Source of the DNA: Thermoleophilia bacterium
GTDB taxonomy: Bacteria > Actinomycetota > Thermoleophilia > RBG-16-64-13
Direction: 5' to 3'
NCBI GenBank assembly: GCA_040768135.1
Contig: JAXGNF010000001.1
Coordinates: forward strand, 16,257 to 80,256
Length of the DNA: 64,000 nucleotides
Numbering within the stretch: the stretch's first letter is position 1; each line of letters opens with the position of its first letter. This document shows, one piece after another, positions 30,762 through 64,000 of the stretch. A model generated the notes under the pieces. That model saw only the letters and a list, made by a program, of their open reading frames with translations, ran no database searches and was not told the origin of the DNA. Position numbers and translations under genes: made by a program.

Positions 30762-30794
30762 CGAACGCCTCCCTTGCGTCTCCTAGGGCCCCTG

Positions 30795-39984: not shown

Positions 39985-40216
39985 TCCTCTCAGCTCCTTT
40001 CGATTGGTCTCCGAGGATCAACTAGATATTCACCTTATTCTATCACTCAGCATGTATCGATATCCGGTCTTAACGACCTACCACCGTGTACGCGACCAGA
40101 TTCTATGATTGCTCTGAGCCATCGGTGAACAGAGGTTAGCCTAGGCTAGACCCAGGCTTACAAACCCCTCGTGCTAAGAGGGCAGGGTAGGGGTGTCGCG
40201 CGGGGGAGACGTTATG

Positions 40217-41668: not shown

Positions 41669-41681
41669 CTAGGCCCCTTTC

Positions 41682-47813: not shown

Positions 47814-48533
47814 TCACCCTCCCAGATATGCTTTTTTGACGATCTCACTGCATCGCAGGGTCTCCACATCTCCGGCCTGCACTACTCGGCCTACCTCGAG
47901 CACGTAGCCGTGGTCGGCGACACCCAAAGCCAGGTGGGCGTTCTGCTCCACCAAGAGGACACTTATGCCCTCTTTGTTGATCTCGCGGATGACTTCGCCC
48001 ACCTGCTCCACTACGATGGGAGCCAATCCCACTGATGGCTCATCCAGACACAGGATCCGAGGGCGGGCCATCAGTCCTCGTCCGATGGCCACCATCTGTT
48101 GCTCTCCACCCGAGAGGGTGCCGGCGTTCTGCTTCTGGCGCTCTTTGAGACGGGGGAAGAGGGTGTACACGTATTCAAGAGATTGGGCGATTCCCGCTTT
48201 GTCGTTTCGGACAGTGGCCCCCAACTTGAGGTTGGTAAGCACGGAGAGATAAGGGAAGAGTTGACGGCCCTCGGGGACCAATACGATGCCCCTGCGCACG
48301 CGGGCGTAGGTCTCCAGGTGGTCGACGGATTCTCCTTGAAAACGGATCGTACCCGCCTGGATAGGGATCAGACCGGCCAGGGCCCTCAGCACCGTACTCT
48401 TGCCCGCGCCGTTGGCCCCGATCATAGTGACGATTCCGCCCTCGGGCACCTGCAAGGAGACCTCGCTGATCGCCAGCGACTTGCCGTAGTAAACGGTGAT
48501 GTTATCGATCTCAACAAACATAGTCGGTCCCAA
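47814..48533 (-). CDS. ABC transporter ATP-binding protein (LivF-like)
   Basis: Walker A GANGAGKST and LSGGEQQ. Confidence 0.85.
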   Translation of the reverse strand: MGPTMFVEIDNITVYYGKSLAISEVSLQVPEGGIVTMIGANGAGKSTVLRALAGLIPIQAGTIRFQGESVDHLETYARVRRGIVLVPEGRQLFPYLSVLTNLKLGATVRNDKAGIAQSLEYVYTLFPRLKERQKQNAGTLSGGEQQMVAIGRGLMARPRILCLDEPSVGLAPIVVEQVGEVIREINKEGISVLLVEQNAHLALGVADHGYVLEVGRVVQAGDVETLRCSEIVKKAYLGG

Positions 48534-49272
48534 AGTAAGCCGAGATGACCTCAGTATTGGCTCGTACCTCCTCCGGAGGGCCTTCTGTGATTTTCTTGCC
48601 GAAGCTGATCACTACCACCCGGTCGCAGAGGCTGAGAATCTGCATGTTGTGCTCTACGATAAGCACTGTGATGCCGTTGTCCCGCATGCCTCGGATGGCA
48701 TCCAAACTGTATTGGATCTCTCCGGGGTTCATCCCCGCCAGGGGCTCATCCAGGAGCAGCAGGCGGGGTTTGGTGGCCAGAGCCCGAGCGACACCCAGCA
48801 TCTTCTGGTGGCCGTGGGCTAGGTTCTTGGCCAGTTCGGCGGCCTCGTTCGACAGCCCTACCATCGCAAGTATCTCGCGCGCCCTTTCCAGTATGAAGGC
48901 CTCGTTGTGGCGGTACCTCCGGGTGTTGAAGAAGACATCAAAGAAACTAGAGTGTGGATGGAGCTCAAATGATGAGGTCACGTTCTCGAGCACAGTGAAC
49001 TCGTGAAACAAAGGGTTGAGCTGGAAGGTGCGGCCGATACCTAATCTCGCCACTTGGTCGGGCACCTTGCGTGTGATGTCATGACCATCGAACACAACCT
49101 TGCCCTGGGAGGCCGGAAGGACCCCTGTAATAAGGTTGAAGACTGTGCTTTTGCCGGCGCCATTTGGCCCGATGAGGCCTACGATCTCACCCTCAGCCAC
49201 CTGGAGGTCAAAATCGTTCACGGCGGTGAGGCCGCCGAAGTTCTTGGTGAGATGCTCAATCTCCAGAAGCAC
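48511..49272 (-). CDS. ABC transporter ATP-binding protein (LivG-like)
   Basis: N-terminus LLEIEHLTKNFGGLTAVNDFDLQV and Walker A GPNGAGKST. Confidence 0.85.
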   Translation of the reverse strand: MLLEIEHLTKNFGGLTAVNDFDLQVAEGEIVGLIGPNGAGKSTVFNLITGVLPASQGKVVFDGHDITRKVPDQVARLGIGRTFQLNPLFHEFTVLENVTSSFELHPHSSFFDVFFNTRRYRHNEAFILERAREILAMVGLSNEAAELAKNLAHGHQKMLGVARALATKPRLLLLDEPLAGMNPGEIQYSLDAIRGMRDNGITVLIVEHNMQILSLCDRVVVISFGKKITEGPPEEVRANTEVISAYFGTDYVC

Positions 49273-50293
49273 CGGGACTCACCCCTCTCCTACTCAGACC
49301 CGCAATGGCCCGATCTCGGATGAGCTTCACCAAACCCACTATGCCCTCAGGCATGGTGAACGCGATTATCAGCAATATGGCGGCAGTGACATACGGGAGG
49401 TCACCCTTCAAATCCCGGAAGAAGAACTCCGGGATGACGAAAAGAATCCCAACACCCACAGTGGGTCCCCAGAATCCGTTGATCCCTCCCACAAGGACGT
49501 ACATGATTATCCAGAGAGTCGCGCCCAGGCCGTAACTACTCGGAGACGCGACTCCTTGGTAGTGGCAGTAGACGGCGCCCATGAGCCCCGCGAAGAAGCT
49601 CCCGAACGCTACCGCCAGGATGCGGTTGCGTCTTTCTCCGATACCGACACTGGCGGCCACCTCGTGTGATTGTGCCACCGCCTTCATTCTGACGCCTATC
49701 CTACTGAACTCGAACCTGTGCATGCAGATCATGCTGATGATTGTCAGGCCGAGAGCCAGGTAGTAGTAGTACTTGCGATCGCTGAACAGCGGTTCTACTC
49801 CACCAAGCCCTGTACTCATGCCGGTTGTCTTCCCGCCCGCCGTAATAAGATTGATGACCACATAGCCCAGGAAAAGTGTCCCCATCGCATAGTAGATCGT
49901 CCGCAAACGTGCGAATGGGAAAGCCAACGCGGCACCCAGAACCGTTGCGGCAACGGCACCCAGTGGGATGGTCACCCACGGCGACCAATGTAGCCAAACA
50001 GAGGGTATCGCAGCTGTGTAGGCGCCAATACCCATGAAGGCGCCAATGGCTATGTTGAATTGCCCCGATATCGAAACTACCCGCCACGAGCTTGAGATGG
50101 TGACGTAAACGAACGTGAGGATCAAGACGTGCATGTAGTACGAACCAGATATGCCCAACGGGAGCAGTGCGAGCACGATGACCAAGGCTCCCAATACGCT
50201 CAGGCCTGGCCAGTTGCGGGACTTCGCCCGGGGTGTCTCTTCGGCCGTCACGTGTGCCTCGGACGCCGGCCGGGTTTTGATAACCTCATTCAT
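49256..50293 (-). CDS. Branched-chain amino acid ABC transporter permease (LivM-like)
   Basis: Polytopic permease with a LivM-like pattern. Confidence 0.8.
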   Translation of the reverse strand: MNEVIKTRPASEAHVTAEETPRAKSRNWPGLSVLGALVIVLALLPLGISGSYYMHVLILTFVYVTISSSWRVVSISGQFNIAIGAFMGIGAYTAAIPSVWLHWSPWVTIPLGAVAATVLGAALAFPFARLRTIYYAMGTLFLGYVVINLITAGGKTTGMSTGLGGVEPLFSDRKYYYYLALGLTIISMICMHRFEFSRIGVRMKAVAQSHEVAASVGIGERRNRILAVAFGSFFAGLMGAVYCHYQGVASPSSYGLGATLWIIMYVLVGGINGFWGPTVGVGILFVIPEFFFRDLKGDLPYVTAAILLIIAFTMPEGIVGLVKLIRDRAIAGLSRRGVSPGASGD

Positions 50294-51152
50294 GGCCGAA
50301 GAACCCCTGGGGCCGGATAATCAGTAGAGCGAGGACCATGATCGAGGCCAAAGCGTCGACTACCGCTCCATTGAGGACGACCGGTAGTGCCCCATAGAGC
50401 ACGCCCAGCAGACCTCCCACATAGAAGATGCCGTTGAAACTACCCAGTCCTGCCAGAATCACCAACATCAACACCTTGATGAGCGTAACGTCGCCAACGA
50501 ACGGTGTCAGGTTATACAGCGTGCCCATGAACACCCCGCCAATAGCGGCCAGCCCAAAACCGACGGCAACGGCGACGGCCGCGATCTGGCCGAAGCGTAT
50601 GCCCTGCAGGGCCGCGCCCTCCCTATTCTGAGTGACCGCCTGCATCCTGGCTCCCCATCGGGAGCGGTCGACGAACAAAATGATCGCGATGAGAATTACT
50701 ATGCCTATACAGAAGGCCAGGATTCGGTCGGTCTCGACTTTGTAGGGACCGATACCGGTTGTCCCCGGGATAAAGGGTGGTATGGAGAGCGCTCGGGTGC
50801 CCATGAATCGGTTGAAGGTGGTCACCAAGATGGTCGAGAGGGCGATACAGATCATGATGGTGCGATTGAAATCGGCCTTCATAGGTCTGAACAGGAACCT
50901 TTCCACGAGGACTCCGAACGCAGCGGCTGCTAGGACGGTCAGGGGAAAGGCTACGAAACCAGGTAGGCCGAGCTTGACCACCATTAGGTAGCAGCCATAA
51001 GCGGCTGATACGAAAATGGCGCCGTGGGCCAGGTTGAATATGCCCAGCAAGTTGAGGATGAACGCGAATCCCATGCCCATGAGGATGTAGACCACCCCTA
51101 GCAGGACCACGTTGATCACTGTCTGAACTGCAGTTTCCACACTTCCAACCAA
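50286..51152 (-). CDS. Branched-chain amino acid ABC transporter permease (LivH-like)
   Basis: Starts MVGSVETAVQTVINVVLLGVVYIL.... Confidence 0.85.
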   Translation of the reverse strand: MVGSVETAVQTVINVVLLGVVYILMGMGFAFILNLLGIFNLAHGAIFVSAAYGCYLMVVKLGLPGFVAFPLTVLAAAAFGVLVERFLFRPMKADFNRTIMICIALSTILVTTFNRFMGTRALSIPPFIPGTTGIGPYKVETDRILAFCIGIVILIAIILFVDRSRWGARMQAVTQNREGAALQGIRFGQIAAVAVAVGFGLAAIGGVFMGTLYNLTPFVGDVTLIKVLMLVILAGLGSFNGIFYVGGLLGVLYGALPVVLNGAVVDALASIMVLALLIIRPQGFFGHE

Positions 51153-51271
51153 TCAGCTCGATTGTTATTTAATTGAGAGCAAGGAGCCGGCCGGCGTGGT
51201 GCGGGAGCATCCTGCCCCCCCCAGCCGGCTCCTTATGCGTTGTCAAGCGGCCATCGATCGATTGCTCGCGA

Positions 51272-52567
51272 TCACGGGGTTACATCTGGAACGATCCAGG
51301 GCTTGTACTCAACCTGTCCGTCGTTGACTAGGGCGACTGGGATCGGATGACCCCACGCATGGTTTGTCAGGCCGAACAGCTCACTGCCACTTGGGAACCC
51401 TTCGCCATAGAGCGTCGGGATGCTGGTCATCGTCTCCCAATGGTCTCTGACTTCGGTCGGATCTAGACTGTCGGCAGCCTGGATGGCGTGCACCAGAATG
51501 TAGAAGGCATTCGAAGCCAGGCCGAACACGTGTCGGTTGACGTCGCCCATCTCCAGCAGCCTCTTCATCGTGGCAGGCATGTGCGGGTCAGTGACCTGCT
51601 TACTGAGCACTCCAACGATGCCGGTAGCTGAATCACCGAGAGCCCCTGTCAGCGAGGGAGCGTCAATCGGGAAGCTGAGGGGGCCTTCGTACCCCAGTGT
51701 TCGTAGGCCCTTGGTAATGCCGAAATACGAGGGGTCGATGGCAACAGGCATCCAGACGGCATCCGGGTTCTGGGCCTTGATTTTGGAGGCCACCGGGTTG
51801 TAGTCCTCAGCATTGGTGGCGAATAGAACCGGGGGGCCGGAGAGGGTGAGGCCAAGCCTGTCGATGAGGGCCTTGAAATGTGGCTCGAAGGCCGGGTAGG
51901 TTGCATCCTCGGTCGCCAAGCAGATAGTCTTGACATCCGGGTAGTAGAGCATAAGGGACTTCAGTTCGGCATTGCCCTGCGTGATAGGGTCGAGACCCAG
52001 GAACGCGTATCTCGTGTCTTTATTCATTTCGGCAGGGTTGAGGCCGTTGTAGTTCGCTACGTGAAGGACTTTGTTCTGCTCGAAAATCGGAGTAGTGGCT
52101 AGGTTGAAGAAGGCCCCAGGGCCGACGACAAACGAGAGCTTCTCGTCCAATACGAGTTTAGTGGCGGCTGCGGTGTTGCCATCGAGAGAGCTCTTGCCAT
52201 CCTCTATGACCAGTTCGATTTTGTAGTTCTTGCCTTGGACCTTGATGCCGCCATCATCGTTGATCATCTGCACTGTGTACTCGAGATCGACTTTGTCGGC
52301 TGCATCTACGACCGAGTACCAATCGGACAACGACAGAATCGCACCTATTTTGAGCGTTTCTGTTGGAGCCGGACCCTCGGTGGTGGCCGGACCCTCGGTG
52401 GTGGCCGGTCCGGCAGTTGGAGCCGGACCCTCGGTGGTGGCCGGACCCTCGGTGGCCGGAGGGGCAGTAGTAGTGGTCTCCTTCTCAGCGCATGCTGCCA
52501 GCAACGGCAGCAGGCCGAGCGCCAGCACCAGCAGCGCGAGACCAATGATCGTCTTGGTTTTTCTCAT
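51272..52567 (-). CDS. Liv-type ABC transporter substrate-binding lipoprotein with a TEGPA-repeat linker
   Basis: Start MRKTKTIIGLALLVLALGLLPLLAAC (ATG at 52567, GGGAGA RBS) followed by a (PATTEGPA)n linker. Confidence 0.8.
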   Translation of the reverse strand: MRKTKTIIGLALLVLALGLLPLLAACAEKETTTTAPPATEGPATTEGPAPTAGPATTEGPATTEGPAPTETLKIGAILSLSDWYSVVDAADKVDLEYTVQMINDDGGIKVQGKNYKIELVIEDGKSSLDGNTAAATKLVLDEKLSFVVGPGAFFNLATTPIFEQNKVLHVANYNGLNPAEMNKDTRYAFLGLDPITQGNAELKSLMLYYPDVKTICLATEDATYPAFEPHFKALIDRLGLTLSGPPVLFATNAEDYNPVASKIKAQNPDAVWMPVAIDPSYFGITKGLRTLGYEGPLSFPIDAPSLTGALGDSATGIVGVLSKQVTDPHMPATMKRLLEMGDVNRHVFGLASNAFYILVHAIQAADSLDPTEVRDHWETMTSIPTLYGEGFPSGSELFGLTNHAWGHPIPVALVNDGQVEYKPWIVPDVTP

Positions 52568-52764
52568 CTCTCTCCCTTTCTTTGAAAAACTCTCGTGGTG
52601 AATTTCGGCCGTCACAACGTTGCTGATCATAACGTCCACTTTCCCCGCTCCCTGATACCCCCTTTCACCTGTCCATACGGGGTGACTTGTCCGGTTCCCC
52701 TGTCTATTGTGCGAGGTCCATATCTATGTGCGAACATCCACATGCCGGGCAAGAGCATCTCGTC

Positions 52765-54225
52765 CTAATCCGGTAGGCCCTTCAACCGCCCCCGACTGAT
52801 ACCCCAGAAGTCTTCGATGGAGGCGTAGTAATCGAGCGTACGCCCCTCGGCCTTCTCCCTTTCGGCCACCTTCTGCCGATGGAAGTCCTTGATCTCTTCA
52901 GGAATGGGCAGGTTCCCGAAATCGAGGTAGCGGCAGGCTCCTGTGTTGTCGCGGATGCCGAGCACTTTGTCCTGAGCATGGATATTGATCGACATGGGCG
53001 AGTCGAGTACGCCTGCTTCCACCGCCTTGACGGTGCCGACGGCGAGATCCCCATCGCCGAGCTCCAAGACTCTGTCAAGGATGGCGTTCACTTCGGCTGT
53101 GGTCACCGCCTCTTCCTCGTCGATGATGGCGTTGTCGATGTCGAGCTGCTGCCCTTCCATCACCCCGAGGATCCACTTGGCCGCCAGATAGCTCTGGCGG
53201 TGAGAGTCCTGCGTGGGTACGCCCGCGGCCTCATCCACAGTCTTGACTGAGACGGCGTCACAGCCTCCAAGGGCAGCCGTTACCGCCGTATAACCGATGT
53301 AACCGAAAGCGCTCCCCATCTCTTGCGGGAAGGGGAACAGGGGGGACTGGCTTCCAAAGACGCCGGGGATGATGACGTCGGTGTGGCCGAACTTATCGAG
53401 GTACTCCCGCATCAGCTTGGGCAGCGTGCGCATATCGGCAAGGTCTTGGAATAGGTTCCCCTGCATGTTCACCTGCGGGAAGACGCTTTTCACCCCTTGT
53501 GTGGCCGAAACCAGCGCTTCGATGATCTGAGTGGCCATGTTGACGCTCATGGGGATTACGAAGTTGGGCAACCAACCGTGGCAATCGGTGGTGATGATGA
53601 CTCCGTGGTCGGCGTAGTAGCCGATAAGCCGCCCCGTGTACTGGGCCGTCTCAATGCACTCTTCGACGGTGGCCTTCTTGTCGTAGCCCGCGATCCATCC
53701 GAAGAAACTGTTGGGGAACGCGTTCATGCCTGAGGCGAAGGCGATCTCGGCTACCATGCTCTGCCCGATACGGGAGGAGCGTGGGTCGAGGGCTCCGTCG
53801 CACGCTTCGACCACTCTTCGGTTGGTCTTGACCCCATGATTGATGATCGGGTAACCATTGAGAGCAGGTTTGCCGGTCCTGATGCTCTCCTGGAGGCCCT
53901 TCTCGACCTTGTCCAGCTGTAGGTTGCGGGTGTAGCTATCGGTTGTGAACGGGAGCAAATGGATGTCGAGCTCGTTCAAAGAGCGGATGAGCGCGATCTC
54001 GTCCTCGACCAGAGGAGTGCCCTGCCGGGGGAAGAGCGAGATACGGCCCTCGTCATGGTACTTCTGCAGGATCTTGTGGAAACGTTTGCTGTCGGGCAGA
54101 GCCTTCTGATACGCGACGGCCTCTTCGAGGTCCACCTCTTTGCCGGTCGGCCAGACGGCAAGCACTTCTTTGCGCTTCTCCATGAACACATCTTCGTCGA
54201 TGCGTTGCTGCTTGACCTTGATCAA
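52765..54225 (-). CDS. glmE: Glutamate mutase epsilon subunit (methylaspartate mutase E chain)
   Basis: EVLAVWPTGKEVDLEEAV... and a C-terminal FGNLPIPEEIKDFHRQKVAEREKAEGR... closely parallel clostridial GlmE (recalled from memory); 486 aa. Confidence 0.7.
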   Translation of the reverse strand: MIKVKQQRIDEDVFMEKRKEVLAVWPTGKEVDLEEAVAYQKALPDSKRFHKILQKYHDEGRISLFPRQGTPLVEDEIALIRSLNELDIHLLPFTTDSYTRNLQLDKVEKGLQESIRTGKPALNGYPIINHGVKTNRRVVEACDGALDPRSSRIGQSMVAEIAFASGMNAFPNSFFGWIAGYDKKATVEECIETAQYTGRLIGYYADHGVIITTDCHGWLPNFVIPMSVNMATQIIEALVSATQGVKSVFPQVNMQGNLFQDLADMRTLPKLMREYLDKFGHTDVIIPGVFGSQSPLFPFPQEMGSAFGYIGYTAVTAALGGCDAVSVKTVDEAAGVPTQDSHRQSYLAAKWILGVMEGQQLDIDNAIIDEEEAVTTAEVNAILDRVLELGDGDLAVGTVKAVEAGVLDSPMSINIHAQDKVLGIRDNTGACRYLDFGNLPIPEEIKDFHRQKVAEREKAEGRTLDYYASIEDFWGISRGRLKGLPD

Positions 54226-54379: not shown

Positions 54380-56272
54380 TCAGTCGTAGATGTAGAGTTC
54401 TTCGACCCGTTCGGGGGTCGGTATTCCTTCGTGATCCCAGCCCATCAACGTGTAGTAGTACCTCTTGGCTTTCTCCATCTTGTCTCGATCGAGTCCGGCA
54501 ACGAACGGCCCGTCGGTCTTGTCTTCGTAGAATCGGGGAGGGAGCCGGTCGTCATCGGCGGTCAGACCCTGTTTGAGGTTAAACAGCCGGGCGGCGGTCA
54601 GGATGCGTTCGGCGGTACGGATAAGCTCGGCCGAACCAACGTCCCAGCCGGCGACTGCGTTCAATATCTCGGCAGGTTGCTTATAGGTGACACCCACATA
54701 CGCCAGGTGACAGGTGAGTAGCACGTCGTTTAGAAACTCTCGGATATGACCTACCTTGAACAAGGCGACCTTACGGGGGCCGATGTCGAGGGCCGGAACC
54801 GTGTCGTAGAAGCCGAGTTGGTGGAAGTCCTTGATACCATGCTCGGCGGCTAGGATGTCGTCGTGGACATTCGCGCAGTGGTCGGCTCCATTGGGGTTGA
54901 CCATGAATCCGAGGGCGAACGCAGGGTTGAGACGCGGCTCGTGCATGCCCGGATGGACGCCTTTGACCTCGATGGAGATTCTGTCGGATCCGCGGCCGAT
55001 CTTCTTGGCTGCCTCGGCTGAACCAAGGGATAGGAGGGCGCCGACACCTTCTCGTCGTCCGATGAGTTCCACGCATTTGACGAGGGCTGCTCCATTGCCG
55101 AAGCGGAGTTCTAGGCCCTCCGTGTCCTCGAGGGTAAGAAGGCCCTTTTCAAAACACTCCATGGCGAACGAGATAGTGTTGCCGGTCGAAATCACGTCGA
55201 GAGAATAGGCATTACACATCTCGTTGGCTTTGACCATAGCCTCCGGGTCGTCTACCTCTACGTTGGTCCCCAATGCGCACATCGCCTCGTACTCGGGGCC
55301 CCCATAATCGGGGTCGACGAAGAAAGGAGCGCCGGATTGCAGCCGTTTCTTGCAACGTAGCGGACATCCGAAGCAGCCCTCCTGAGGAAGGCCCATCCTC
55401 TCCTTGAGGGCCCCGCCGTGGACGTTCTTGACCCCGTCGGCGAACGGAGCCCCTCTCCAGTTGTGCACGGGCAGGTGCCCGACGGCTTCCATGCCCTCCA
55501 TCTCGGGCCCCCCGGTGCCGAACTCAGGGAGGACCTGCTGTATCCAAAAATGACTCCAGTGTTCTTTGGTCAGCCAGTTGTTGAAGGCTCTGACGGCTTC
55601 CCGGTCGAACACACGGGCCCGGCCGGTGCCACGCACGCCGACGGCTTTGAGATTCTTTGATCCCATGACTGCGCCTAGGCCGCCCCGCCCCGCAGCATCG
55701 AAGGGCCCATGCATGATGCAGGCGAAGGGCACGAGGTTTTCTCCGCCCGGCCCGATCATGGCCACGCGTACCCGGGGGTCGCTCAGTTCTTCACGTATGG
55801 CCGCTTGGGTGTCCTTCGTAAGTAGGCCCCACAAAGCGGCTGCGTCGCGGATGGTGACATCGCCGTCCTTGATAGAGAGATATACGGGTCTCTCCGCCCT
55901 GCCTTCCACGATGAGAACGTCGTAGCCGGCCTTTTTGAGCTCCACTCCCCAGTGTTCACCGGCCTGGCAGAGGGCGATTCCGCCGCTTAATGGTGACTTG
56001 GCGCCCACCCCATGACGTCCGGTGGCGTAGACTGCCGTCCCGGTGACCGGGCTGAGTGCGAACACCAGTTTGTTTTCAGGACCCAGTGCGTCCGCCCCGG
56101 CCGGCACCTCGGTGAGCAGTATTTGGGTGATCAGCCCCGAGCCGCCCAGCCATTTGCGGTAGTAGCGCTCGTCTCTTTCTTCAGTGGTAATCGAGCCGGT
56201 GGTTAGATCCACCCGCAGGATCCTACAGGTCATGCCGCCCCAGGGCTGTTCGCCTGCTTTGTTGTCACTCAT
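54380..56272 (-). CDS. Aldehyde:ferredoxin oxidoreductase family tungsten enzyme (AOR paralog 3)
   Basis: 630 aa with ...CRILRVDLTTGSITTEE... and the conserved AOR core. Confidence 0.85.
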   Translation of the reverse strand: MSDNKAGEQPWGGMTCRILRVDLTTGSITTEERDERYYRKWLGGSGLITQILLTEVPAGADALGPENKLVFALSPVTGTAVYATGRHGVGAKSPLSGGIALCQAGEHWGVELKKAGYDVLIVEGRAERPVYLSIKDGDVTIRDAAALWGLLTKDTQAAIREELSDPRVRVAMIGPGGENLVPFACIMHGPFDAAGRGGLGAVMGSKNLKAVGVRGTGRARVFDREAVRAFNNWLTKEHWSHFWIQQVLPEFGTGGPEMEGMEAVGHLPVHNWRGAPFADGVKNVHGGALKERMGLPQEGCFGCPLRCKKRLQSGAPFFVDPDYGGPEYEAMCALGTNVEVDDPEAMVKANEMCNAYSLDVISTGNTISFAMECFEKGLLTLEDTEGLELRFGNGAALVKCVELIGRREGVGALLSLGSAEAAKKIGRGSDRISIEVKGVHPGMHEPRLNPAFALGFMVNPNGADHCANVHDDILAAEHGIKDFHQLGFYDTVPALDIGPRKVALFKVGHIREFLNDVLLTCHLAYVGVTYKQPAEILNAVAGWDVGSAELIRTAERILTAARLFNLKQGLTADDDRLPPRFYEDKTDGPFVAGLDRDKMEKAKRYYYTLMGWDHEGIPTPERVEELYIYD

Positions 56273-56371
56273 GCCGCCGCACCCTTCGCGTATGTCTATC
56301 TTTCACAATGTGTACCCCGACCTGTTTTGGGATGTCCGCGCCCACGAAAGCTCATTTGTCATATCCGACGG

Positions 56372-57163
56372 CTAGCGTTGTACAGGCAGCGGGAGGCCGC
56401 CGGTGACCGGCAGCACTATTCCGGTGACATAAGACGACATCTCCGAAGCCAGGAAGAGGGCCGGACCGGCCATCTCTTCGGGCCGTCCCATGCGTCCCAG
56501 GGGCGCGTTGCCACCAACCATGGTGAAGAAGGCCTCCGCCTCCTCGTCGGTCTTGTCCTCCACGATCTCGCCAAAGAATGGCGTGCGGAAGGGCCCCGGC
56601 ATGATCGCGTTGACGTAGATGTTGTCTTTGGCCAGTTCGGCGGCCATGTCATACGTCAAACCGAGCACACCGGCCTTGGCTGCGTGGTAGTGCGGATGCG
56701 GCGAAGGAGGGCTGATCGCGCCGAGCGATGACATGTTGACGATCTTGCCGTAACCGTTGGCCTTCATGTAGGGCACCGCCTCCCGGCTGCATAGAAAGAC
56801 CCCTTTGAGATTCAGGTCGATGACCCGGTTCCAAGCATCCTCGTCGAGGGCAGTGAGGTTGGTTGGTTTGCCGTGAGCGCCGACAACCGCACCGGCGTTG
56901 TTCACCAAGATGTCGAGCTTGCCGAAGGCGGCGACCGTAGTCTCCACCATCTCTTTTGCCTGAACCCCGTCGGTGACGTCACACCTGACGGCCAGACCTT
57001 CGCCGCCGCCCGCTCGAATGGCTTCCACCGTCGCTTCCGCCTCCGCCATGTCGATGTCGGCCACAGTGACCTTGGCCCCCTCAATGGCGAATCGTTCTGC
57101 GATAGCCCGACCCATCCCTTTGGCCCCGCCCGTGACGATGGCCACCCGGTCTTTCAGAAGCAT
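56372..57163 (-). CDS. SDR family oxidoreductase
   Basis: MLLKDRVAIVTGGAKGMGRAIAERF. The ATG at 57163 has an AGGAGA RBS; the 127-codon upstream extension of the ORF is rejected. Confidence 0.8.
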   Translation of the reverse strand: MLLKDRVAIVTGGAKGMGRAIAERFAIEGAKVTVADIDMAEAEATVEAIRAGGGEGLAVRCDVTDGVQAKEMVETTVAAFGKLDILVNNAGAVVGAHGKPTNLTALDEDAWNRVIDLNLKGVFLCSREAVPYMKANGYGKIVNMSSLGAISPPSPHPHYHAAKAGVLGLTYDMAAELAKDNIYVNAIMPGPFRTPFFGEIVEDKTDEEAEAFFTMVGGNAPLGRMGRPEEMAGPALFLASEMSSYVTGIVLPVTGGLPLPVQR

Positions 57164-57231
57164 CCCATTCTCCTTCTCTCTGGCGGACATGTGGTGATCG
57201 GCAGCATTCCTTTGCGTGCGCTCACTTCTTG

Positions 57232-59556
57232 TCACAGTCTGAGTTCGATGTCCCATAGATAGTCGTGGTCTACGCGGGCGATCTCCGTCGCCAGACGGGC
57301 TCCGCAACGAGGACAGAAGAACTCTCTGAAGCACATCCTCATCATCATCTCCTCGTCGAAAGACGCATATCCAGGACCGAGGGAGTCGACGGAGTCTTGA
57401 TTCACCGTGCAGGAATCCTTGAAATTGGCGCTCCCCGGCCCGAGATCCTGGCCGCATCTGCACAGATAGCGGCTCCCGGCGGTTGTCCGAGCCAGACTCA
57501 AATTGTCGTTGATGCTTATGAGGGTGCGCCCGTTGGCACATGGGGAGTCGGTTATGGTGGCTACGTCGTCCCGTGCGGAGCGTCCGCCGATGCGTGCGAG
57601 CCTACGTGTGGCTCGTTCGGCGTGGGTCGCCTGTTCATCCACCGTACCGGCATCGTCAACGAGGGCTCCATAGACGGTGAAGGCCTGTTCTGCTGTGAGG
57701 GTGCCTTCGAAGAGATCGCGGTTGACAAGCACGGGGTCCCGGTCCAGCGGATCGCCGTAACCTGCGAAGTTAGGCAGGTTGAGCGTCCACACGGAGGTCT
57801 GGTCAAGCCGGACAGGCGTTCCCTTCCAGAAGAGCGGGATCTCTTCGCCCGATATCGCATCAAAGTCCTGCGGGATGGTCCCCGCCGACATTTGCGCGGC
57901 GACATCAGTGTCTCGCTTGAGTCGAAAGAAAGCTCGTCCTCCGGGATTGCCCCCCAGCAGCCCCTGGCATTTGGCAAAACTCTCGTTGTTGTAGACCTGC
58001 GTATCGAGGGTATCGGTGCCGTGGATTAGCCAGGCCTCTTCGGCTGCGACCCCACTCCGGTACTTACCGGCACCGGCTGCGTCTGCGCGGTTCTGCCGCC
58101 GGTACAGGGTGAGGATTGGCCATGAAGTTTCGTTGTCTTCGACATTCGACGCTTCCATGCCCGGCACCCAGTAGATGCCCCCAGTATCGATACCGTCACG
58201 ATTCGGTGAAGCGGGGACGGCTCCCGGAGCCATCCCGGAGTGCATGGCCATGAAGAACTGCCCGTGCTGGTTGATGCCGTTGAAGATCCAACCTCCGTAG
58301 GCGTGCACGTCTGCGATACCGATGGCTTTGTCCCGCAAGGGAGGGTCGGCGCACGCGACCATCTTGGCTGTCGCTCCGGTGGCGGTCGCAACCACCATGG
58401 GCATGTTGCAGACGCCTGCGCCGCTCACGGGCGCCGGATAGTCGGCACAGGTTATGGTCCCGGGGACTGGACGGAACTTGACCCGGCGGGCCACTCCACC
58501 GCAAACGCCTCCTAGATCGTAGGCGAGCATGAGGGTGAGTGGAGCAAGGACCGCCCCTACGAAGCCGGCGTAGGTGTTGTTGATCGCACCTATCTGGGGC
58601 GAGGTCCCTTCGTTATCCACATAGAGGTAGTCACCGTCTTTGACGATGTTCACCTGGCTGACGTAAATGCCTCGGTCGCCCGGCACGGCCGCTTCGGTGT
58701 AGATGCGCTCCGACCAGCGTCCATCTGGGATCATCCGGAGCTTCTCCAGAAACGCACGCTCACTGGCGTCAAGGGTTCTCTTCATGACCGCCTTCACCGT
58801 TCTTGCCCCATAACGCTCGAGGAGTCTGAGGATACGTTGCCGGGAGACGGCGAGGCCGGCAAGAGCTGCATGGAGGTCCATTGCCACCGTCGCAGGTACC
58901 CGAGATTGACGTAGGTAGAGTTGCTCCATGTCTGCCCGCAGGGTGCCGCGCTCGACAAGCTTCATGGGAGGGAAGAGCGGTGGATCTTCCCAGATGGTCC
59001 ACGAACCCAGGCAGAAGCTCCCGGGGGCCGGCCCCCCTACGTCGCTGTAGTGGACCGAGTTGGCCACCCAGCAGAAAAGCTCGTCTTCCCAGAACACGGG
59101 CGAAGTCAGTTCCGTGTCCTGCTGATGGGAGGTTCCCACATACGGATCGCTACACAGGAAGACGTCCCCATCGTCGATACCGGGATTGTCGCTGCGGTTC
59201 TCGAGGACCCACTTGGTCATGATGCCGAGCGTGTTCGCTAGGTACATGAGATAGGGCCCCATGAACATGACGTCCCCCGTCTCCGTGAGGATCGCGCACT
59301 GGAAGTCGCGGTTGATCATGGTAATGGGGGAGATGCTCAGCTTCTGAATGGTATGGCCGTTCTCCAGGTTGATGTTCTGTAGGCTGTTGCGGATTACTTC
59401 GTACGAGACGGGATCCACCACGGGCTCCTCCGCAGTCTGGAGCCGTAGCCGCGGGCTTATAGAGAGCACCTCGGGCGGGGCATAGCCACGGAGTCGTCCG
59501 TCCCAGAGGATGTCGGCTTCGCCGTGAGTGGTGTGGGATGGATCCGGGGCGCTCAT
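57232..59556 (-). CDS. Hydantoinase B/oxoprolinase family protein (acetone-carboxylase alpha-like) with a C-terminal Cys-rich (Zn-ribbon-like) tail
   Basis: 774 aa with a HyuB-type core and a C-terminal CxxC...CxxC motif. Confidence 0.75.
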   Translation of the reverse strand: MSAPDPSHTTHGEADILWDGRLRGYAPPEVLSISPRLRLQTAEEPVVDPVSYEVIRNSLQNINLENGHTIQKLSISPITMINRDFQCAILTETGDVMFMGPYLMYLANTLGIMTKWVLENRSDNPGIDDGDVFLCSDPYVGTSHQQDTELTSPVFWEDELFCWVANSVHYSDVGGPAPGSFCLGSWTIWEDPPLFPPMKLVERGTLRADMEQLYLRQSRVPATVAMDLHAALAGLAVSRQRILRLLERYGARTVKAVMKRTLDASERAFLEKLRMIPDGRWSERIYTEAAVPGDRGIYVSQVNIVKDGDYLYVDNEGTSPQIGAINNTYAGFVGAVLAPLTLMLAYDLGGVCGGVARRVKFRPVPGTITCADYPAPVSGAGVCNMPMVVATATGATAKMVACADPPLRDKAIGIADVHAYGGWIFNGINQHGQFFMAMHSGMAPGAVPASPNRDGIDTGGIYWVPGMEASNVEDNETSWPILTLYRRQNRADAAGAGKYRSGVAAEEAWLIHGTDTLDTQVYNNESFAKCQGLLGGNPGGRAFFRLKRDTDVAAQMSAGTIPQDFDAISGEEIPLFWKGTPVRLDQTSVWTLNLPNFAGYGDPLDRDPVLVNRDLFEGTLTAEQAFTVYGALVDDAGTVDEQATHAERATRRLARIGGRSARDDVATITDSPCANGRTLISINDNLSLARTTAGSRYLCRCGQDLGPGSANFKDSCTVNQDSVDSLGPGYASFDEEMMMRMCFREFFCPRCGARLATEIARVDHDYLWDIELRL

Positions 59557-61730
59557 CGGATGTACTCGCGCTGTCGAGAGTGTGTCGGTTCATGAACTGC
59601 CGCTGATTGCGCTGCGTACTTTCCCGGCTCTTCGAGTCGGAGCACGAAATTCCCGAAGGCGTCGCAGTCAAGAGTCTGTCCACCTCCTACCGCAATTGAA
59701 GTGTAGGGGAGCTCGATCACTGCGGGGCCCACGATACGATTGCCGTGACGGAGTTTCCGTCCGTCGAAGATGTCACTCGGCAGACGCTCCATTCGGTCGG
59801 GCCAGAAGATCGTGCGGGTCCCCAGATATCCGGCGGCGGCCACCGGTGTTGTCGACGCCCTCTCCAGCGCTTGTCGCGGACGTTCTAGTCTAACGAAGGC
59901 GTGGATGCGCAAGGTAATGAGTTCGACGCCCTGGGAGACCACTCCGGCTCCCTGTCCGTACAGACCGTCATATCTCTCGCGAAAGTCGTCGACAACCCGA
60001 TTGAGCTCGGCTTGAGTGAGTGTCCCGGAGGGGATGCGTACCAACAGGCTGTGCAACCACTGCCCGCTGTAACGCATGAGGCCGTAACGTTCGATCTCCA
60101 CGTTTTCGGCCCGCTCACCCATGACGCGCATCGACTCCAGCGCCTGCTCCTCGAGACCGGCAATCAGGTCGTTAAGTCCTTTCACCGGGAACGGGGCGAA
60201 GAAAAGCTGTTCCTGTTCAAGGTTGAGCACGAGGTTCGAGGTCGAGCAGCCGTAGGCTGAGAGTGTGGAGGCTCCATTGCCCAACGGGATCACAACGCTT
60301 CTGACCCCCAACTCTTGGGCGAAGGCGAACGCATGGAGCGGACCGGCCCCTCCGTAGGCGTAGACCACAAAGTCCCGCGGATCGTATCCGCGGACCACGG
60401 TCTGTTGTCGGATGAGCTCCGCCGCCCGGGCGTTGTTGATGCGGATGATACCGGCGGCTGTTTCTTCTGGCCCCAAGCCGACCTGGTTGCCGAGGTGAGC
60501 GATTGCGGCCAGGGCTGCTTCCCGGTCAAGGGGCATGCGGCCTCCCAGAAAACCTTCTGCCGAAAGCAGTCCAAGTACCAGGTCGGCGTCAGTCACAGTA
60601 GGTTCGGTACCGCCCCGCCCGTAGCAAACCGGTCCGGGAGACGCCCCCGCACTCTCCGGCCCCACTCGGATAGACCGGCTGAAGGGGTCGAGTCGAGCGA
60701 TGGTGCCTCCCCCGCACGCGATGGAGTTGGTCTCGATTCGAGGGAGTTTGTATCGGTACTGGTCGATAATGTTCTCATCGCCCACCAGGGGCTCGCCGTC
60801 AATGAGAAGGCCCACTTCAAAGGATGTGCCCCCCATGTCGGTGGCAATGATGTTCTTGTGTCCGAGCTGTCCAGCCAGTGAGAGCGACCCTATCAGTCCG
60901 CCGACTGGGCCGGAGCCCAGGGAGGTCAGTGGGATCTCGACGGCTTTGGCGGCCGGCAGCACTCCACCCGACACCTGCATGATGAGAAGAGGGTTCTTCA
61001 AACCCGAATCGCGCAAGGTGGAGGAGGCGCGACGGAAGTAGGACCGTACAGACGGGGCTATGTAACTGTTGATGACCGTTGCGACCGTGCGTTCGTATTC
61101 GCCCATCCGCGGTGCCACCCGGTGCGAGCAGCACACGTAAACGTCTGGAGCGACTCGGCGGATTATGTCCTCGGCCTGCAGTTCGTGAGCGGGGTTCTTG
61201 AACGAGAAAAGGAAGGCAACGGCGATAGCCTTCACCCCCGCTGCAACCAGGTCTTCGGCGGCCGCTTCGACTGCTGCCTCGTCAAGAGGAACGATCTCAT
61301 CCCCGCAAAAGTCGATACGCTCGTCGATCTCCCTTATGAGTGCTCGAGGGACTAAAGGACGAGGTTTTTGGGTGGCCTGCGGGTGGAACAGCATGTCCAA
61401 CTCAAGCCCTGCCGTGCGACCCGTGCCTCGCATGATGAGAATTGAGTCGCCATGACCGGCGGTGGCAAGTAGGCCGGTCTTAGCACCGTGCCGCTCGACC
61501 AAGAGGTTCGTACCAACGGTGGTCCCCAGACTGAAGCGCTCCGTGGACGCGATGAGTTCGGGGACGGTCGTGTCGCAATCCTCGGCCAGGGCGGAGAGAG
61601 CATTGAACATGCCGACTGCAAAATCATCCTTGGTGGTGGCGGCTTTGGCGTAGTATAGGTGGCCGCCCTCATCCATGGCCGTGCAGTCGGTGAAGGTACC
61701 TCCTCCGTCGACTCCGATGTAGTAACGCAA
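59553..61730 (-). CDS. Hydantoinase A/oxoprolinase family protein (acetone-carboxylase beta-like)
   Basis: 725 aa; N-terminus YIGVDGGGTFTDC typical of the HyuA/ASKHA fold; 4-nt overlap with the HyuB gene. Confidence 0.8.
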   Translation of the reverse strand: MRYYIGVDGGGTFTDCTAMDEGGHLYYAKAATTKDDFAVGMFNALSALAEDCDTTVPELIASTERFSLGTTVGTNLLVERHGAKTGLLATAGHGDSILIMRGTGRTAGLELDMLFHPQATQKPRPLVPRALIREIDERIDFCGDEIVPLDEAAVEAAAEDLVAAGVKAIAVAFLFSFKNPAHELQAEDIIRRVAPDVYVCCSHRVAPRMGEYERTVATVINSYIAPSVRSYFRRASSTLRDSGLKNPLLIMQVSGGVLPAAKAVEIPLTSLGSGPVGGLIGSLSLAGQLGHKNIIATDMGGTSFEVGLLIDGEPLVGDENIIDQYRYKLPRIETNSIACGGGTIARLDPFSRSIRVGPESAGASPGPVCYGRGGTEPTVTDADLVLGLLSAEGFLGGRMPLDREAALAAIAHLGNQVGLGPEETAAGIIRINNARAAELIRQQTVVRGYDPRDFVVYAYGGAGPLHAFAFAQELGVRSVVIPLGNGASTLSAYGCSTSNLVLNLEQEQLFFAPFPVKGLNDLIAGLEEQALESMRVMGERAENVEIERYGLMRYSGQWLHSLLVRIPSGTLTQAELNRVVDDFRERYDGLYGQGAGVVSQGVELITLRIHAFVRLERPRQALERASTTPVAAAGYLGTRTIFWPDRMERLPSDIFDGRKLRHGNRIVGPAVIELPYTSIAVGGGQTLDCDAFGNFVLRLEEPGKYAAQSAAVHEPTHSRQREYIR

Positions 61731-61750
61731 CCGCCCGGCTCCTTCGCGCG

Positions 61751-63169
61751 TCAGCTCGCGAGACTTGTTAGGTCGCGTACGTCATCCAGCGTTTCGAGCT
61801 GAGCGATGGCATCGACTAGGCGTCGGGCGTTGGCCGGAGAGATCGGGTGGCCCGCGTGGGCCAGGCAATCGTCATACTTACGTTCGATATCTGCGAACGA
61901 GAGGGGCCGCGACGGCGTACCGGTGGGTAGGTCGACCTGCTCCGTGAAGGTGATGCCGCCGGTGGTGGTAACGCTCACCCTAGCCGGTTCGATGCCCACG
62001 TCACCACGATTGAGCGTCGGGTCGATTCGCACTGTGGTCTTGGCTGTCAGCCCCAGGACATCAGGATTTTTGATGGCTTCCTCGCTGAAGTCGTCGAGGG
62101 TCGCACGACGTCGAACCAGCGCCGTCGCTACCCCCCAAATGATGCTGAACTGAGCGTCAACATAGGTTTGAGGACGGGCTTTGGTCTCAAACGGGGTGGC
62201 AAGGAGAAAATTGGTCCCCTCGCCGCATTCGATGAGGATGCTCTCGATATCGTCCGGACGGAGGTCGTTGTTGGAGGCCAGCGCGAGGCCTGCATCGATG
62301 AACGGATGAACGCCCCGGCAGCACGGGTAGGGTTTGATGGAGACATTGACGCCTTCGAACCGAGTGCCCAGCTCTCCGACCAGGATGTCGCGGGAGTACG
62401 AGCCTCCATGATAGACCTGGTACATGCCCGACCTGCCCTCGAAGGTGTTCCGTGCACCGGTGATGCCGCGTTTTGCCATGAGGGCGGAAGCTATGCCTCC
62501 CCTAACGGCCATTCCCGGGCCCATGCGTTTGGTCAGTGCTCCGTCCTTCACACACTGGCCGTTCCCCGACGACTGGTGGTAGCCAATGCCGATGGCGTTG
62601 CTGATGCCATCCTCATCCAGGCCCATAAGACGGGCGGCTACTGCACCGGCGGTCATATAGCCGAAGAGGGTGGTGAGGTGCCAGCCGTATTGGTGGATGT
62701 TTTCCCCCGGTCTGGTGGCCAGGCCCAGACGGCAGATGAAGTCGGTACCGAGGGCGATAGACGCGATGAACTCCTGACCACTCAGCCCACCTCTATAGTC
62801 GGCCATGGCCAGAGCAGTAGGGATGGTGATCACCCCTGGATGCATGATGGCGTCCTCATGAACGTCGTCAAAATCAAGAGAATGAGCCATGATGGCATTC
62901 ACTTGGGCTGCGTTTGGCGCGGGAAGCGCATCTCCCCAGCGGAGCGTACGGCTTTGCTTGGCTCCGCCCCATTCCAGCATCAGATCCCGCATCTCATCCA
63001 CCCCGGTCTCGGCGGACCCGCCGAGGGCGACCCCGAAGAAGTCCAAGACTTGGTCTTTTGTAATCTTGACTACTTCGGGAGGCAAGTCGTCATACCTGAT
63101 CCTCCAGAAGTTGGTCACGAACAACGCCGCTGCGTCGGTACCCGCGTCAGGGAGGCTGGATTGGGTCAT
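61751..63169 (-). CDS. MmgE/PrpD family protein
   Basis: 472 aa with a PrpD-like pattern. Confidence 0.7.
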   Translation of the reverse strand: MTQSSLPDAGTDAAALFVTNFWRIRYDDLPPEVVKITKDQVLDFFGVALGGSAETGVDEMRDLMLEWGGAKQSRTLRWGDALPAPNAAQVNAIMAHSLDFDDVHEDAIMHPGVITIPTALAMADYRGGLSGQEFIASIALGTDFICRLGLATRPGENIHQYGWHLTTLFGYMTAGAVAARLMGLDEDGISNAIGIGYHQSSGNGQCVKDGALTKRMGPGMAVRGGIASALMAKRGITGARNTFEGRSGMYQVYHGGSYSRDILVGELGTRFEGVNVSIKPYPCCRGVHPFIDAGLALASNNDLRPDDIESILIECGEGTNFLLATPFETKARPQTYVDAQFSIIWGVATALVRRRATLDDFSEEAIKNPDVLGLTAKTTVRIDPTLNRGDVGIEPARVSVTTTGGITFTEQVDLPTGTPSRPLSFADIERKYDDCLAHAGHPISPANARRLVDAIAQLETLDDVRDLTSLAS

Positions 63170-63204
63170 GTCCGAGGTCCTTTCTGCCCAAGAGGTAGCG
63201 TTCG

Positions 63205-64000
63205 TTAGGTCAGCAGAGGCCGCGTAGTGGAGAAATGTAGGTTGACAGCGCGTAGGAGAGGACCGAGGTCTTGGCTCATCTTGGTAGCTACTTGGACCAT
63301 CTCGAGACCGATCTCATGAGCTCGTTCGGGAGTGAACGAACCCACAGTGACCAGGCATCCGGCAACGTGTTGACCGTCAGGGATATCTACAGACTCCACA
63401 GTGAGCACGGTGCTGACGGCATTCAGCCCCGACCAGGTCGTGCCGAGGCTCACGCCGTATCCCAGCCGCCGGGCGTCTTCGACCTGTGCCCGCAAAACGT
63501 CCCGCTCGATGTGGTCACGGTCAGTCTCACCGGCCTGAAGTAACGTACTCTGAGTCAAACGCCGCTCGAACTCCTCGGGAGGGAGGGCTGCAAGATAAGC
63601 TCGCCCGTGAGCGCCCCAGGTCACGGGGTAGCGGTGCCCTACGTCGATGGCGATGTAGGAGCCACCCGGAGCGTGTCGCCGGGCGACGACAAAAAGCGTT
63701 TCCCCGGACACTGCCCCTAGATGAACACTACACCCTGTGAATGCGGCCAGTTCCTCCAGATAAGGGATCGCCGCCCTGGCTATATCTGTGGTGTTCATGA
63801 ACGCACGGCTCAGCAGGAGAATGTTTGGCCCCAGTGAGTAGTTCTTGGTGCGTTCGTCGCGGGTGACCAACCCGGCGCTGCGAAGCGTGTTCAAGATGGC
63901 AAGACCCTTGCTCTTGCTGATACCTACCTGTTTGGAAAGGTCGGTCAGCGAGGCCTCCCCACCTACGGTGTTGGCCAGTGAGAAGAGGAGGCGGATGGAC
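63205..64000 (-). CDS. IclR family transcriptional regulator (5' end runs off the window)
   Basis: HTH ...LSKQVGISKSKGLAILNTLRSAGLV... plus an IclR effector domain. The reading frame stays open to the window edge. Confidence 0.8.
   Translation of the reverse strand, partial: SIRLLFSLANTVGGEASLTDLSKQVGISKSKGLAILNTLRSAGLVTRDERTKNYSLGPNILLLSRAFMNTTDIARAAIPYLEELAAFTGCSVHLGAVSGETLFVVARRHAPGGSYIAIDVGHRYPVTWGAHGRAYLAALPPEEFERRLTQSTLLQAGETDRDHIERDVLRAQVEDARRLGYGVSLGTTWSGLNAVSTVLTVESVDIPDGQHVAGCLVTVGSFTPERAHEIGLEMVQVATKMSQDLGPLLRAVNLHFSTTRPLLT

Follow-up and report, generated by a model that had tools for sequence, protein, structure and literature searches.

The cysteine-rich C-terminal tail of HyuB, a hydantoinase-like protein encoded in a 64,000-nucleotide stretch of the genome of a Thermoleophilia bacterium (contig JAXGNF010000001.1; the whole stretch is called the window below), is a gamma subunit fused to the metal-binding chain. 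With its partner HyuA, HyuB makes up a complete three-part alpha-beta-gamma relative of acetone carboxylase. We interpret the region that encodes the pair as the downstream half of a single catabolic gene cluster, shared by uncultivated anaerobic Actinomycetota and Clostridia. We combined Pfam domain calls, tblastn, sequence searches of the PDB, NCBIfam equivalogs, Foldseek and AlphaFold2 in its analysis. In the direction of reading, the genes and modules are the following.

63205..64000, minus strand: IclR-family regulator, 5′ end cut by the window edge (IclR_C, 62.7 bits)
61751..63169, minus strand: MmgE/PrpD-family protein, 472 aa (MmgE_PrpD N and C domains, 195 and 122 bits)
59553..61730, minus strand: HyuA, ATP-binding (ASKHA) subunit, 725 aa (Hydant_A_N, Hydantoinase_A, Hydant_A_C)
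57232..59556, minus strand: HyuB, whole chain, 774 aa (Hydantoinase_B and Acetone_carb_G)
57592..59556, minus strand: HyuB core with the metal site, residues 1 to ~655 (Hydantoinase_B, 304 bits, residues 48–603)
57232..57522, minus strand: gamma module fused to HyuB, residues 679–774, a four-Cys zinc ribbon (PF08882, 30.2 bits)
56372..57163, minus strand: short-chain dehydrogenase/reductase (SDR), 263 aa (adh_short_C2, 211 bits)
54380..56272, minus strand: tungsten-type aldehyde:ferredoxin oxidoreductase (AOR), 630 aa (AFOR_N 251 and AFOR_C 338 bits)
52765..54225, minus strand: GlmE*, glutamate-mutase epsilon-like, without Glu171 (Met_asp_mut_E, 486 bits)

Every large open reading frame (ORF) from 47.8 kb to the end of the window lies on the minus strand (ORF and Pfam scan), and the IclR-PrpD-HyuA-HyuB-SDR-AOR content and common direction given in the first-pass annotation of this DNA are borne out. 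That annotation also placed GlmE within 54380-64000; the gene exists but lies outside that range, at 52765-54225, 154 nt after the AOR gene.

HyuB carries a fused gamma subunit

Residues 679–772 of HyuB correspond to the Pfam domain Acetone_carb_G (PF08882), scoring 30.2 bits where the gathering cut-off is 21. In a PDB search with the tail by itself, the top three matches are the gamma chains of acetone carboxylase (Acx; 5SVB_C and 5M45_C) and of acetophenone carboxylase (Apc; 5L9W_C), the others being weaker (E ≥ 0.5). Its C-x-C-G and C-P-x-C-G motifs align with those of the gamma chains (CEC ... CPECG in Acx-gamma), and the zinc cysteines are C699, C701, C748 and C751. An AlphaFold2 model built from a 14-sequence alignment is poor in the core, with a mean predicted local distance difference test score (pLDDT) of 56, and was used only for the tail, where pLDDT is 82–91, and for family-level fold matches. 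Against the PDB, Foldseek gives 11 matches at E ≤ 0.001, plus 5L9W_C at 4.7e-3; they comprise seven HyuB-type chains (Apc, Acx, N-methylhydantoinase and caprolactamase) and five Acx or Apc gamma chains. Just two kinds of chain match the tail, Acx-gamma (E = 2e-4) and Apc-gamma 5L9W_C (target template modeling [TM] score 0.61, root-mean-square deviation 3.2 Å).

The same module also occurs as a separate gene. In L018, L019 and L089 (comparison loci are numbered with the prefix L), where the orthologous clusters show 68–70% identity, gamma has its own start; it occupies 12064-12387 (107 aa) in L018 and 12557-12895 (112 aa) in L019, and in L089 it has 108 aa and is called as PF08882. Only these three loci, with clean separate gamma ORFs, were counted as natural splits, and ~655-aa relatives that appear to lack gamma in long-read assemblies with many broken genes (L004 and L005) were excluded. 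We identify the tail as gamma because of the Pfam call, the sequence match in the PDB, the fold match and the separate gene in L018, L019 and L089. The Cys-rich tail noticed in the first-pass annotation is thus real and is the Acetone_carb_G domain, but the accompanying statement that no gamma subunit is present was mistaken. The agreement in size between HyuB and Acx-alpha (774 versus 776 aa), taken there as a match, is a coincidence, since HyuB comprises a core of ~650 aa (650–660), a linker and a gamma domain of ~100 aa.

A search of 1.84 billion 50%-identity representatives yielded 875 proteins at E ≤ 1e-30. Among the best 150 of these 875, 121 are N-terminally complete, and 92 of the 121 carry the beta-gamma fusion, at identities of 26–80%. 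An assembly artefact was considered and rejected, because the fusion recurs in 92 independent 50% clusters. The four-Cys tail motif is kept in 99 of 103 representatives of at least 690 aa. Alignment A1 shows a variant in an Amycolatopsis/Pseudonocardia/Streptomyces clade (P0047, P0053, P0057, P0090 and P0092), which keeps the gamma domain and has lost three of the four zinc cysteines (ATATG ... CPVTG). One protein, P0298 (1430 aa), suggests a possible alpha-beta-gamma single chain, with query residues 43–772 matching its positions 717–1421; P0296 (1030 aa) and P0288 (1340 aa) are other larger apparent fusions.

The catalytic core and its place in the family

The pair has the hallmarks of the hydantoinase/ketone-carboxylase superfamily: adjacent genes encode a HyuA-type subunit that carries ASKHA motifs and a subunit of the HyuB type, with Pfam scores far above the cut-offs. 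HyuA contains the ATP motifs DGGGTFTD (residue 8), DMGGTS (298) and GASPGP (362), representing two phosphate motifs and the adenosine motif as defined previously (PMC8453981). The metal tetrad of HyuB, D84/H144/D147/H169, is equivalent to D65/H123/D126/H148 of Apc and E89/H150/D153/H175 of Acx (PMC8453981), and is invariant in alignment A1, across 14 homologues down to 45% identity. Neither the ATP motifs nor the Asp-His-Asp-His metal site nor any of the four zinc cysteines is disrupted, and catalysis is predicted.

In the PDB, HyuA scores 403 bits against caprolactamase CapA, 366 against Apc and 331 against both Acx-beta and N-methylhydantoinase (NMHase). HyuB scores 161 bits against Apc, 136 against caprolactamase beta, 115 against NMHase and 105–107 against Acx-alpha (in two stretches), and aligns to the HyuB-type subunit of Apc up to residue 649. 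Its identity to each of the references Acx, Apc, caprolactamase and N-methylhydantoinase is 26–29%, and to the N-methylhydantoinase/oxoprolinase-type 7HK5 it is 26% over the N-terminal region. NCBIfam equivalog cut-offs are missed two- to eightfold (CapA 506 versus 1000, CapB 158 versus 1000, ApcC 371 versus 1500 and ApcD 185 versus 1500). In a rough neighbor-joining tree, made without bootstrap from 232 N-terminal columns with reference fragments from the PDB search, Acx plus Apc and caprolactamase plus NMHase fall outside the beta-gamma-fused radiation; clustering with characterized Acx is not seen in it, Acx-alpha lying outside the clade of the window protein. That clade comprises proteins from metagenome-assembled genomes (MAGs) of Actinomycetota and Clostridia, and its sister group is Amycolatopsis-like, from aerobic actinobacteria. 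A scan of one Amycolatopsis locus (L033), which is affected by high-GC ORF ambiguity, found unrelated neighbors and no functional hint.

To our knowledge, acetone carboxylase and acetophenone carboxylase are the only ketone carboxylases of the family to have been characterized. Acx (AcxABC of Xanthobacter autotrophicus; 5SVB/5M45) has the same order of ATP-binding subunit, metal subunit and gamma, and shares with the HyuB tail the C-x-C first knuckle and with the HyuB core the His-Asp-His metal ligands, but its first ligand is Glu89 where HyuB has Asp. In Acx gamma is separate and has ~168 aa, whereas here it is fused, has 105–112 aa and lacks ~50–70 N-terminal residues (the match covers Acx-gamma 72–150). 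The Acx metal subunit (776 aa) is longer than the ~650-aa HyuB core, identity is only 26% in the N-terminal part, with the alignment broken into two stretches, and the genomic setting differs. No reference matches the HyuB core better, in sequence (161 bits) or in fold (Foldseek E = 1e-21), than Apc (Aromatoleum aromaticum; 5L9W), which has a similar core length (684 aa), the same Asp-His-Asp-His tetrad and a gamma of similar size that superposes (TM 0.61). The metal subunit of Apc wraps a C-terminal arm around gamma (PMC5214803), an arrangement in which fusing beta to gamma is sterically natural. Apc differs in having alpha′ and epsilon subunits and the order apcABCDE, and the first knuckle of Apc-gamma is C-x-x-C (PMC5214803) rather than C-x-C; no alpha′ or epsilon subunit and no second HyuA-like gene is present in the HyuAB cluster. 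Caprolactamase CapAB and the lactamases, hydantoinases and oxoprolinases share the ATP motifs and metal tetrad, and CapA is the best HyuA match (403 bits). These enzymes, however, have two subunits and no gamma, and their HyuB-type subunit is ~70 aa shorter (~565–595 aa). HyuAB departs from this Hyd type (two subunits, no gamma, HyuB of 565–595 aa) in having gamma and a core of ~650 aa.

Among characterized family members only carboxylases carry gamma, all characterized Hyd enzymes being without it, and genes in the order alpha-beta-gamma follow the acx pattern (PMC5214803). Under the annotation criteria of Weidenweber et al. (PMC5214803), the window enzyme would be of acx type in gene order, between Hyd and Apc in its lengths, and in none of the three named branches in its phylogeny. 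The first-pass annotation had likened the pair to an ATP-dependent carboxylase and not to a housekeeping oxoprolinase; this agrees with the scores far under the NCBIfam cut-offs, the position outside CapB plus NMHase in the rough tree, and the conserved catabolic cluster described below.

A conserved gene order

The genes from IclR to AOR behave as one unit, with short gaps, no terminators and synteny in ~12 species-level MAGs. Along IclR, PrpD, HyuA, HyuB, SDR, AOR and GlmE, successive intergenic distances are 35, 20, −4, 68, 99 and 154 nt, the −4 being an ATGA in which the hyuA stop and hyuB start overlap. Ribosome-binding sites lie upstream of the starts, as with GAAGGAG 8 nt ahead of the TTG start of HyuA. 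A consensus scan detects no minus-strand terminator-like site in the gaps and no promoter excess, and the intergenic RNAs fold no better than shuffles (z = −0.8 to +1.4), so that the internal terminators which, according to the first-pass annotation, might split the operon are not in evidence. A 389-aa ORF at 56372-57541, overlapping the 3′ end of hyuB, was rejected as an over-extended reading of the SDR.

For the comparative set, one genome of each species was scanned, and the window proteins then served as tblastn queries. The order IclR-PrpD-HyuA-HyuB(gamma)-SDR-AOR-GlmE-...-binding protein-ABC recurs in ~12 uncultivated Actinomycetota MAGs (L006, L008–L016 and L039), where HyuB is 73–86% identical; in the fragmented L014 and L039, PrpD or HyuA is below the tblastn filter. 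The stretch PrpD-HyuA-HyuB(gamma)-SDR is syntenic in L006 and L008–L019. IclR orthologues (46–76% identity; tblastn) sit just upstream of PrpD in nine related loci, SDR orthologues (55–89%) follow HyuB or gamma in nearly all related clusters, and PrpD orthologues co-occur with HyuAB in L006–L019, L088 and L089, and with GlmE*/GlmS in L086. The AOR is missing at its position in L008 and L016 and lies elsewhere in the cluster in L088 and L089. Several loci have an extra SDR and a FAD_binding_2 protein inserted after GlmE; homologues of the FAD_binding_2 protein and of the window SDR at 38781-39620 sit inside the HyuAB operon in L008, L009 and L015, and the homologues of the inserted pair adjoin the glycyl radical enzyme (GRE) gene in this window (38781-41668). 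A Liv-type ATP-binding cassette (ABC) transporter is syntenic in the related Actinomycetota loci, and a tripartite ATP-independent periplasmic (TRAP) transporter takes its place in the Clostridia clusters L088 and L089.

Four loci join these genes to those of a second operon of the window, which encodes the GRE. Its genes and the transporter genes are as follows.

47814..52639, minus strand: Liv-type ABC uptake system of one binding protein, two permeases and two ATPases (Peripla_BP_6; BPD_transp_2 and ABC_tran called in L001 and L002)
51272-52639, minus strand: Liv-type binding protein (Peripla_BP_6), with the Liv-type ABC genes next to it
35703-38258, minus strand: GRE (PFL-like and Gly_radical domains)
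34708-35619, minus strand: GRE activase (radical SAM)
34236-34673, minus strand: GlmS (B12-binding domain, motif DAHVIG; NF002612, 183 versus a cut-off of 110)
32759-34204, minus strand: GlmL/MutL reactivase (MutL, 506 bits)

In the Actinomycetota MAGs L018 and L019, (GlmE)-GlmS-GRE-GlmL-PrpD-HyuA-HyuB-gamma-SDR is contiguous. The Clostridia clusters read GRE-activase-GlmE-GlmS-PrpD-HyuA-HyuB-gamma-SDR-TRAP-AOR in L089 and GlmE-GlmS-GlmL-HyuA-HyuB-gamma-TRAP-GRE-PrpD-ADH-AOR in L088. In both, all cluster genes have orthologues 57–77% identical to the window proteins, in shuffled order. The comparison suggests that the cluster moves as a unit and supports a pathway shared with the GRE. The link to the GRE operon put forward in the first-pass annotation is therefore upheld by these contiguous GRE-Glm-PrpD-HyuAB blocks in L018, L019, L088 and L089, and by the position of GlmS and GlmL behind the GRE activase in the window.

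In Actinobacteria bacterium RBG_16_64_13 (L003/L007), only HyuA and HyuB-gamma are kept, at 76% and 81% identity; their neighbors are homologues of the FAD_binding_2, URO-D-like and SnoaL-like proteins and the second AOR of the window. This neighborhood suggests that the whole 18–64 kb island is a functional network.

An altered mutase and its glycyl radical enzyme

GlmE* barely passes the TIGR01503 cut-off (406.3 versus 390.1 bits). Aligned with 6H9E_B of Clostridium cochlearium, it keeps Arg66, Arg100, Arg149 and Tyr181, but Glu171 is replaced by Pro and Tyr177 by Trp, in an aromatic loop that reads NAFPNSFFGW where the C. cochlearium enzyme has TSNEGGGISY. Glu171 is changed in 15 of 15 orthologues of the related loci and, in a database search, in ~110 of the 120 top matches, which extend to 63% identity. 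We take Glu171 to bind or handle the substrate amino group in glutamate mutase, alongside the three-Arg claw. Because this catalytic residue is replaced, GlmE* is probably not a standard glutamate mutase, the identity implied by the first-pass annotation; if this role of Glu171 is right, this subfamily would rearrange a dicarboxylate without an amino group.

The GlmE fold, the three-Arg claw, a separate GlmS and a MutL-type reactivase are shared with the glutamate mutase of C. cochlearium (1CCW/6H9E). Canonical Glm clusters, however, carry methylaspartate ammonia-lyase, mesaconase and citramalate lyase (PMC4682846), and none of these domains was found among the scanned window ORFs or in L086–L089. 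GlmE requires a partner that binds B12; the GlmE* operon is without one, GlmS and GlmL lying 20 kb off, directly behind the GRE activase. The Glu171Pro subfamily is large and includes many fused GlmE-GlmS proteins, and a GRE or GRE activase adjoins it in all four loci inspected (L086–L089). In Pelotomaculum thermopropionicum SI (L086), GlmE* has a GRE-activase-like gene on one side and GlmS with a PrpD-like gene on the other, in a cluster broken by insertion elements; many Clostridia have a fused GlmE-GlmS, which in L087 follows the GRE and activase.

The GRE gives a good alignment with eliminases and isomerases and has the usual Gly motif (RVGGYSAYF), but where those enzymes have GC(V/I)E, its Cys loop is SGCLGYH. 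It thus lacks the CXE motif characteristic of GRE eliminases and isomerases (PMC13450708) and also the CC of pyruvate formate-lyase (PFL). It reaches no NCBIfam equivalog, with a best score of 481 against a cut-off of 1000, and may have a new GRE function. A 2026 review of these enzymes makes no mention of a GRE linked to a B12 mutase (PMC13450708), and our search of the literature for the cluster's gene combination found nothing relevant.

Other genes of the cluster and the window

The MmgE/PrpD-like protein matches at family level only and is not a PrpD orthologue, scoring 32.8 against the cut-off of 950 for the NCBIfam PrpD equivalog NF042438; its best solved relatives are IDS epimerase and IRG1/cis-aconitate decarboxylase (74–121 bits). 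The SDR resembles FabG and 3-hydroxybutyrate dehydrogenase and reaches no NCBIfam equivalog. The AOR scores 369 bits against Pyrococcus furiosus AOR (1AOR), 243 against FOR and 199 against BamB, and a BamB-type function was rejected on the difference between the first and last of these. The IclR frame is open to base 63999, so that the gene is truncated by the window end; it contains a helix-turn-helix-like stretch, with the N terminus beyond the window, and its best NCBIfam match, the PcaR/PcaU subfamily, is far under the cut-off.

The binding proteins at 51272-52639 and 4710-6053 have a Thr/Pro/Gly-rich repeat linker, such as PATTEGPAPTAGPATTEGPATTEGP, after the signal/lipobox region. The repeat linker gives spurious New_glue Pfam matches on 4710-6053 and 17538-18698, and none is scored on 51272-52639. 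The stretch 18932-32775, which includes two further SDRs, holds a toolkit reminiscent of bile-acid (bai) or alicyclic-acid operons.

18932-20968 and 28659-30761: two Oxidored_FMN plus Pyr_redox_2 reductases of the old yellow enzyme (OYE) type
21384-22751: URO-D-like protein
23140-25011 and 26754-28649: two further AORs
30795-31832: two SnoaL-like small proteins
31832-32775: two small proteins with no Pfam match, whose homologues adjoin GlmL in L087

Between the two operons, the stretch 40217-46350 encodes a FAD_binding_2 protein, a GltD/NuoG-like iron-sulfur flavoprotein, a NuoF-like protein and a GcvT-like aminomethyltransferase.

Discussion

We consider that the cluster probably encodes a so far undescribed anaerobic breakdown pathway. 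For the HyuAB pair we favor, at about an even chance, an ATP-dependent carboxylase over a lactamase. In such a pathway, HyuA would spend ATP on phosphorylating a carbonyl substrate in its enol form and on activating bicarbonate, and the metal site of HyuB would join the two into a beta-keto acid, in the manner of the acetone and acetophenone carboxylases. The SDR would then reduce the new keto group and the PrpD-like protein dehydrate or isomerize the resulting hydroxy-polycarboxylate. Carboxylate, reduce, dehydrate is a coherent triad, and it matches the three most tightly linked genes. The tungsten AOR may interconvert aldehyde and acid in the same route, while GlmE*, GlmS and GlmL would form an adenosylcobalamin mutase that rearranges a nitrogen-free dicarboxylate and links the two operons; both AOR and mutase could act up- or downstream of the triad, and IclR is the likely local regulator. 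Intermediates without nitrogen are favored because GlmE* is altered and no amine-handling enzyme is conserved, neither an aminotransferase nor an ammonia-lyase being seen in the conserved gene set. The TRAP transporters of the Clostridia clusters favor a carboxylated substrate, and our best guess is a carboxylate-bearing ketone or keto acid. Specific schemes are speculation, for example 2-oxobutyrate to 3-methyloxaloacetate, 3-methylmalate and 2-hydroxyglutarate, or a route like nicotinate fermentation.

Several observations weigh against this proposal. We know of no member of the beta-gamma-fused radiation whose activity has been characterized, and gamma is no more than a correlate of carboxylation, known from two characterized enzymes. 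For HyuA, caprolactamase alpha gives a higher score (403 and 506 bits in the PDB and NCBIfam searches) than Apc or Acx does, the metal tetrad is shared with lactamases and does not discriminate, and Acx has a longer metal subunit and a longer gamma than the ~650-aa HyuB core and the ~105-aa gamma found here. A structural role is ascribed to gamma, which is distant from the active sites (PMC5214803). The AlphaFold2 model of the catalytic core is poor (mean pLDDT 56), and the putative roles of SDR, PrpD and AOR come from family chemistry and adjacency only.

HyuA and HyuB-gamma could instead be an ATP-dependent cyclic amide or imide hydrolase of the Hyd type, opening a lactam from an N-heterocycle or a cyclic amino-acid derivative, with the product, or the aldehyde left after deamination, passing to the SDR, AOR, B12 mutase and PrpD-like hydratase. 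Such a route would resemble nicotinate fermentation, with its enamidase, dehydrogenase, 2-methyleneglutarate mutase and hydratase, or anaerobic indoleacetate degradation, which uses a B12 mutase as well as a lactamase. The closest match of HyuA is caprolactamase alpha, and an aldehyde intermediate such as 2-formylglutarate would suit the AOR and SDR. In L089 the neighbors of the cluster include an AMP ligase and a Mo hydroxylase of the xanthine-dehydrogenase type, and the window has two OYE-type reductases and GcvT-like and URO-D-like proteins that might act on an N-heterocycle. The lactamase of the indoleacetate pathway is itself hydantoinase-like (PMC8453981, PMC5214803). We nevertheless regard a lactam hydrolase as rather unlikely: gamma is present with an intact zinc site, which no characterized Hyd enzyme has (PMC5214803), HyuB lies outside the CapB plus NMHase pair in the rough tree, the cluster conserves no enzyme that would deal with a released amine, and GlmE* is without the amino-binding Glu.

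A different outcome of the same activation is also conceivable, in which the pair would use ATP to activate a carbonyl and the enol phosphate, for example, would be consumed by the GRE, the mutase or the PrpD-like protein. What the family members have in common is that they phosphorylate an enol or imidate (PMC5214803), the clade is equidistant from all characterized members (26–29% identity), and the cluster has two radical enzymes, the GRE and the mutase; yet such an outcome is without precedent in the family and the conserved metal site implies a second chemical step on HyuB, so that we hold it to be improbable. The Pfam names and the JGI label N-methylhydantoinase B would make HyuA and HyuB a housekeeping 5-oxoprolinase or hydantoinase with unrelated neighbors. 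This is very improbable indeed, given the 26% identity to 7HK5, the placement elsewhere in the rough tree, the presence of gamma, the conservation of the cluster with PrpD, SDR, AOR, Glm genes, GRE and transporters in two phyla, and the IclR regulator upstream. That label and methylaspartate mutase subunit E are probably both wrong for these proteins.

Returning to the carboxylase, a more far-reaching proposal is possible, although we place it somewhat below an even chance. A set of ~12 genes, encoding a GRE without CXE and its activase, a mutase without the amino-binding Glu, an alpha-beta-gamma carboxylase, a PrpD-like protein, an SDR, an AOR and a carboxylate transporter, is conserved across phyla and would constitute an undescribed anaerobic pathway that brings three energetically demanding enzyme types to bear on one carboxylated carbonyl, without CoA esters. 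On that view, the beta-gamma-fused proteins would represent a functionally new branch of the ketone or keto-acid carboxylases.

The family thus contains a large radiation in which gamma is fused to the metal subunit, and one of its clades sits in a defined, portable anaerobic cluster. By tying a GRE, an altered B12 mutase and an ATP-dependent carbonyl-activating enzyme together, this cluster offers a handle on a new anaerobic catabolic route, and on whether gamma truly marks carboxylases.

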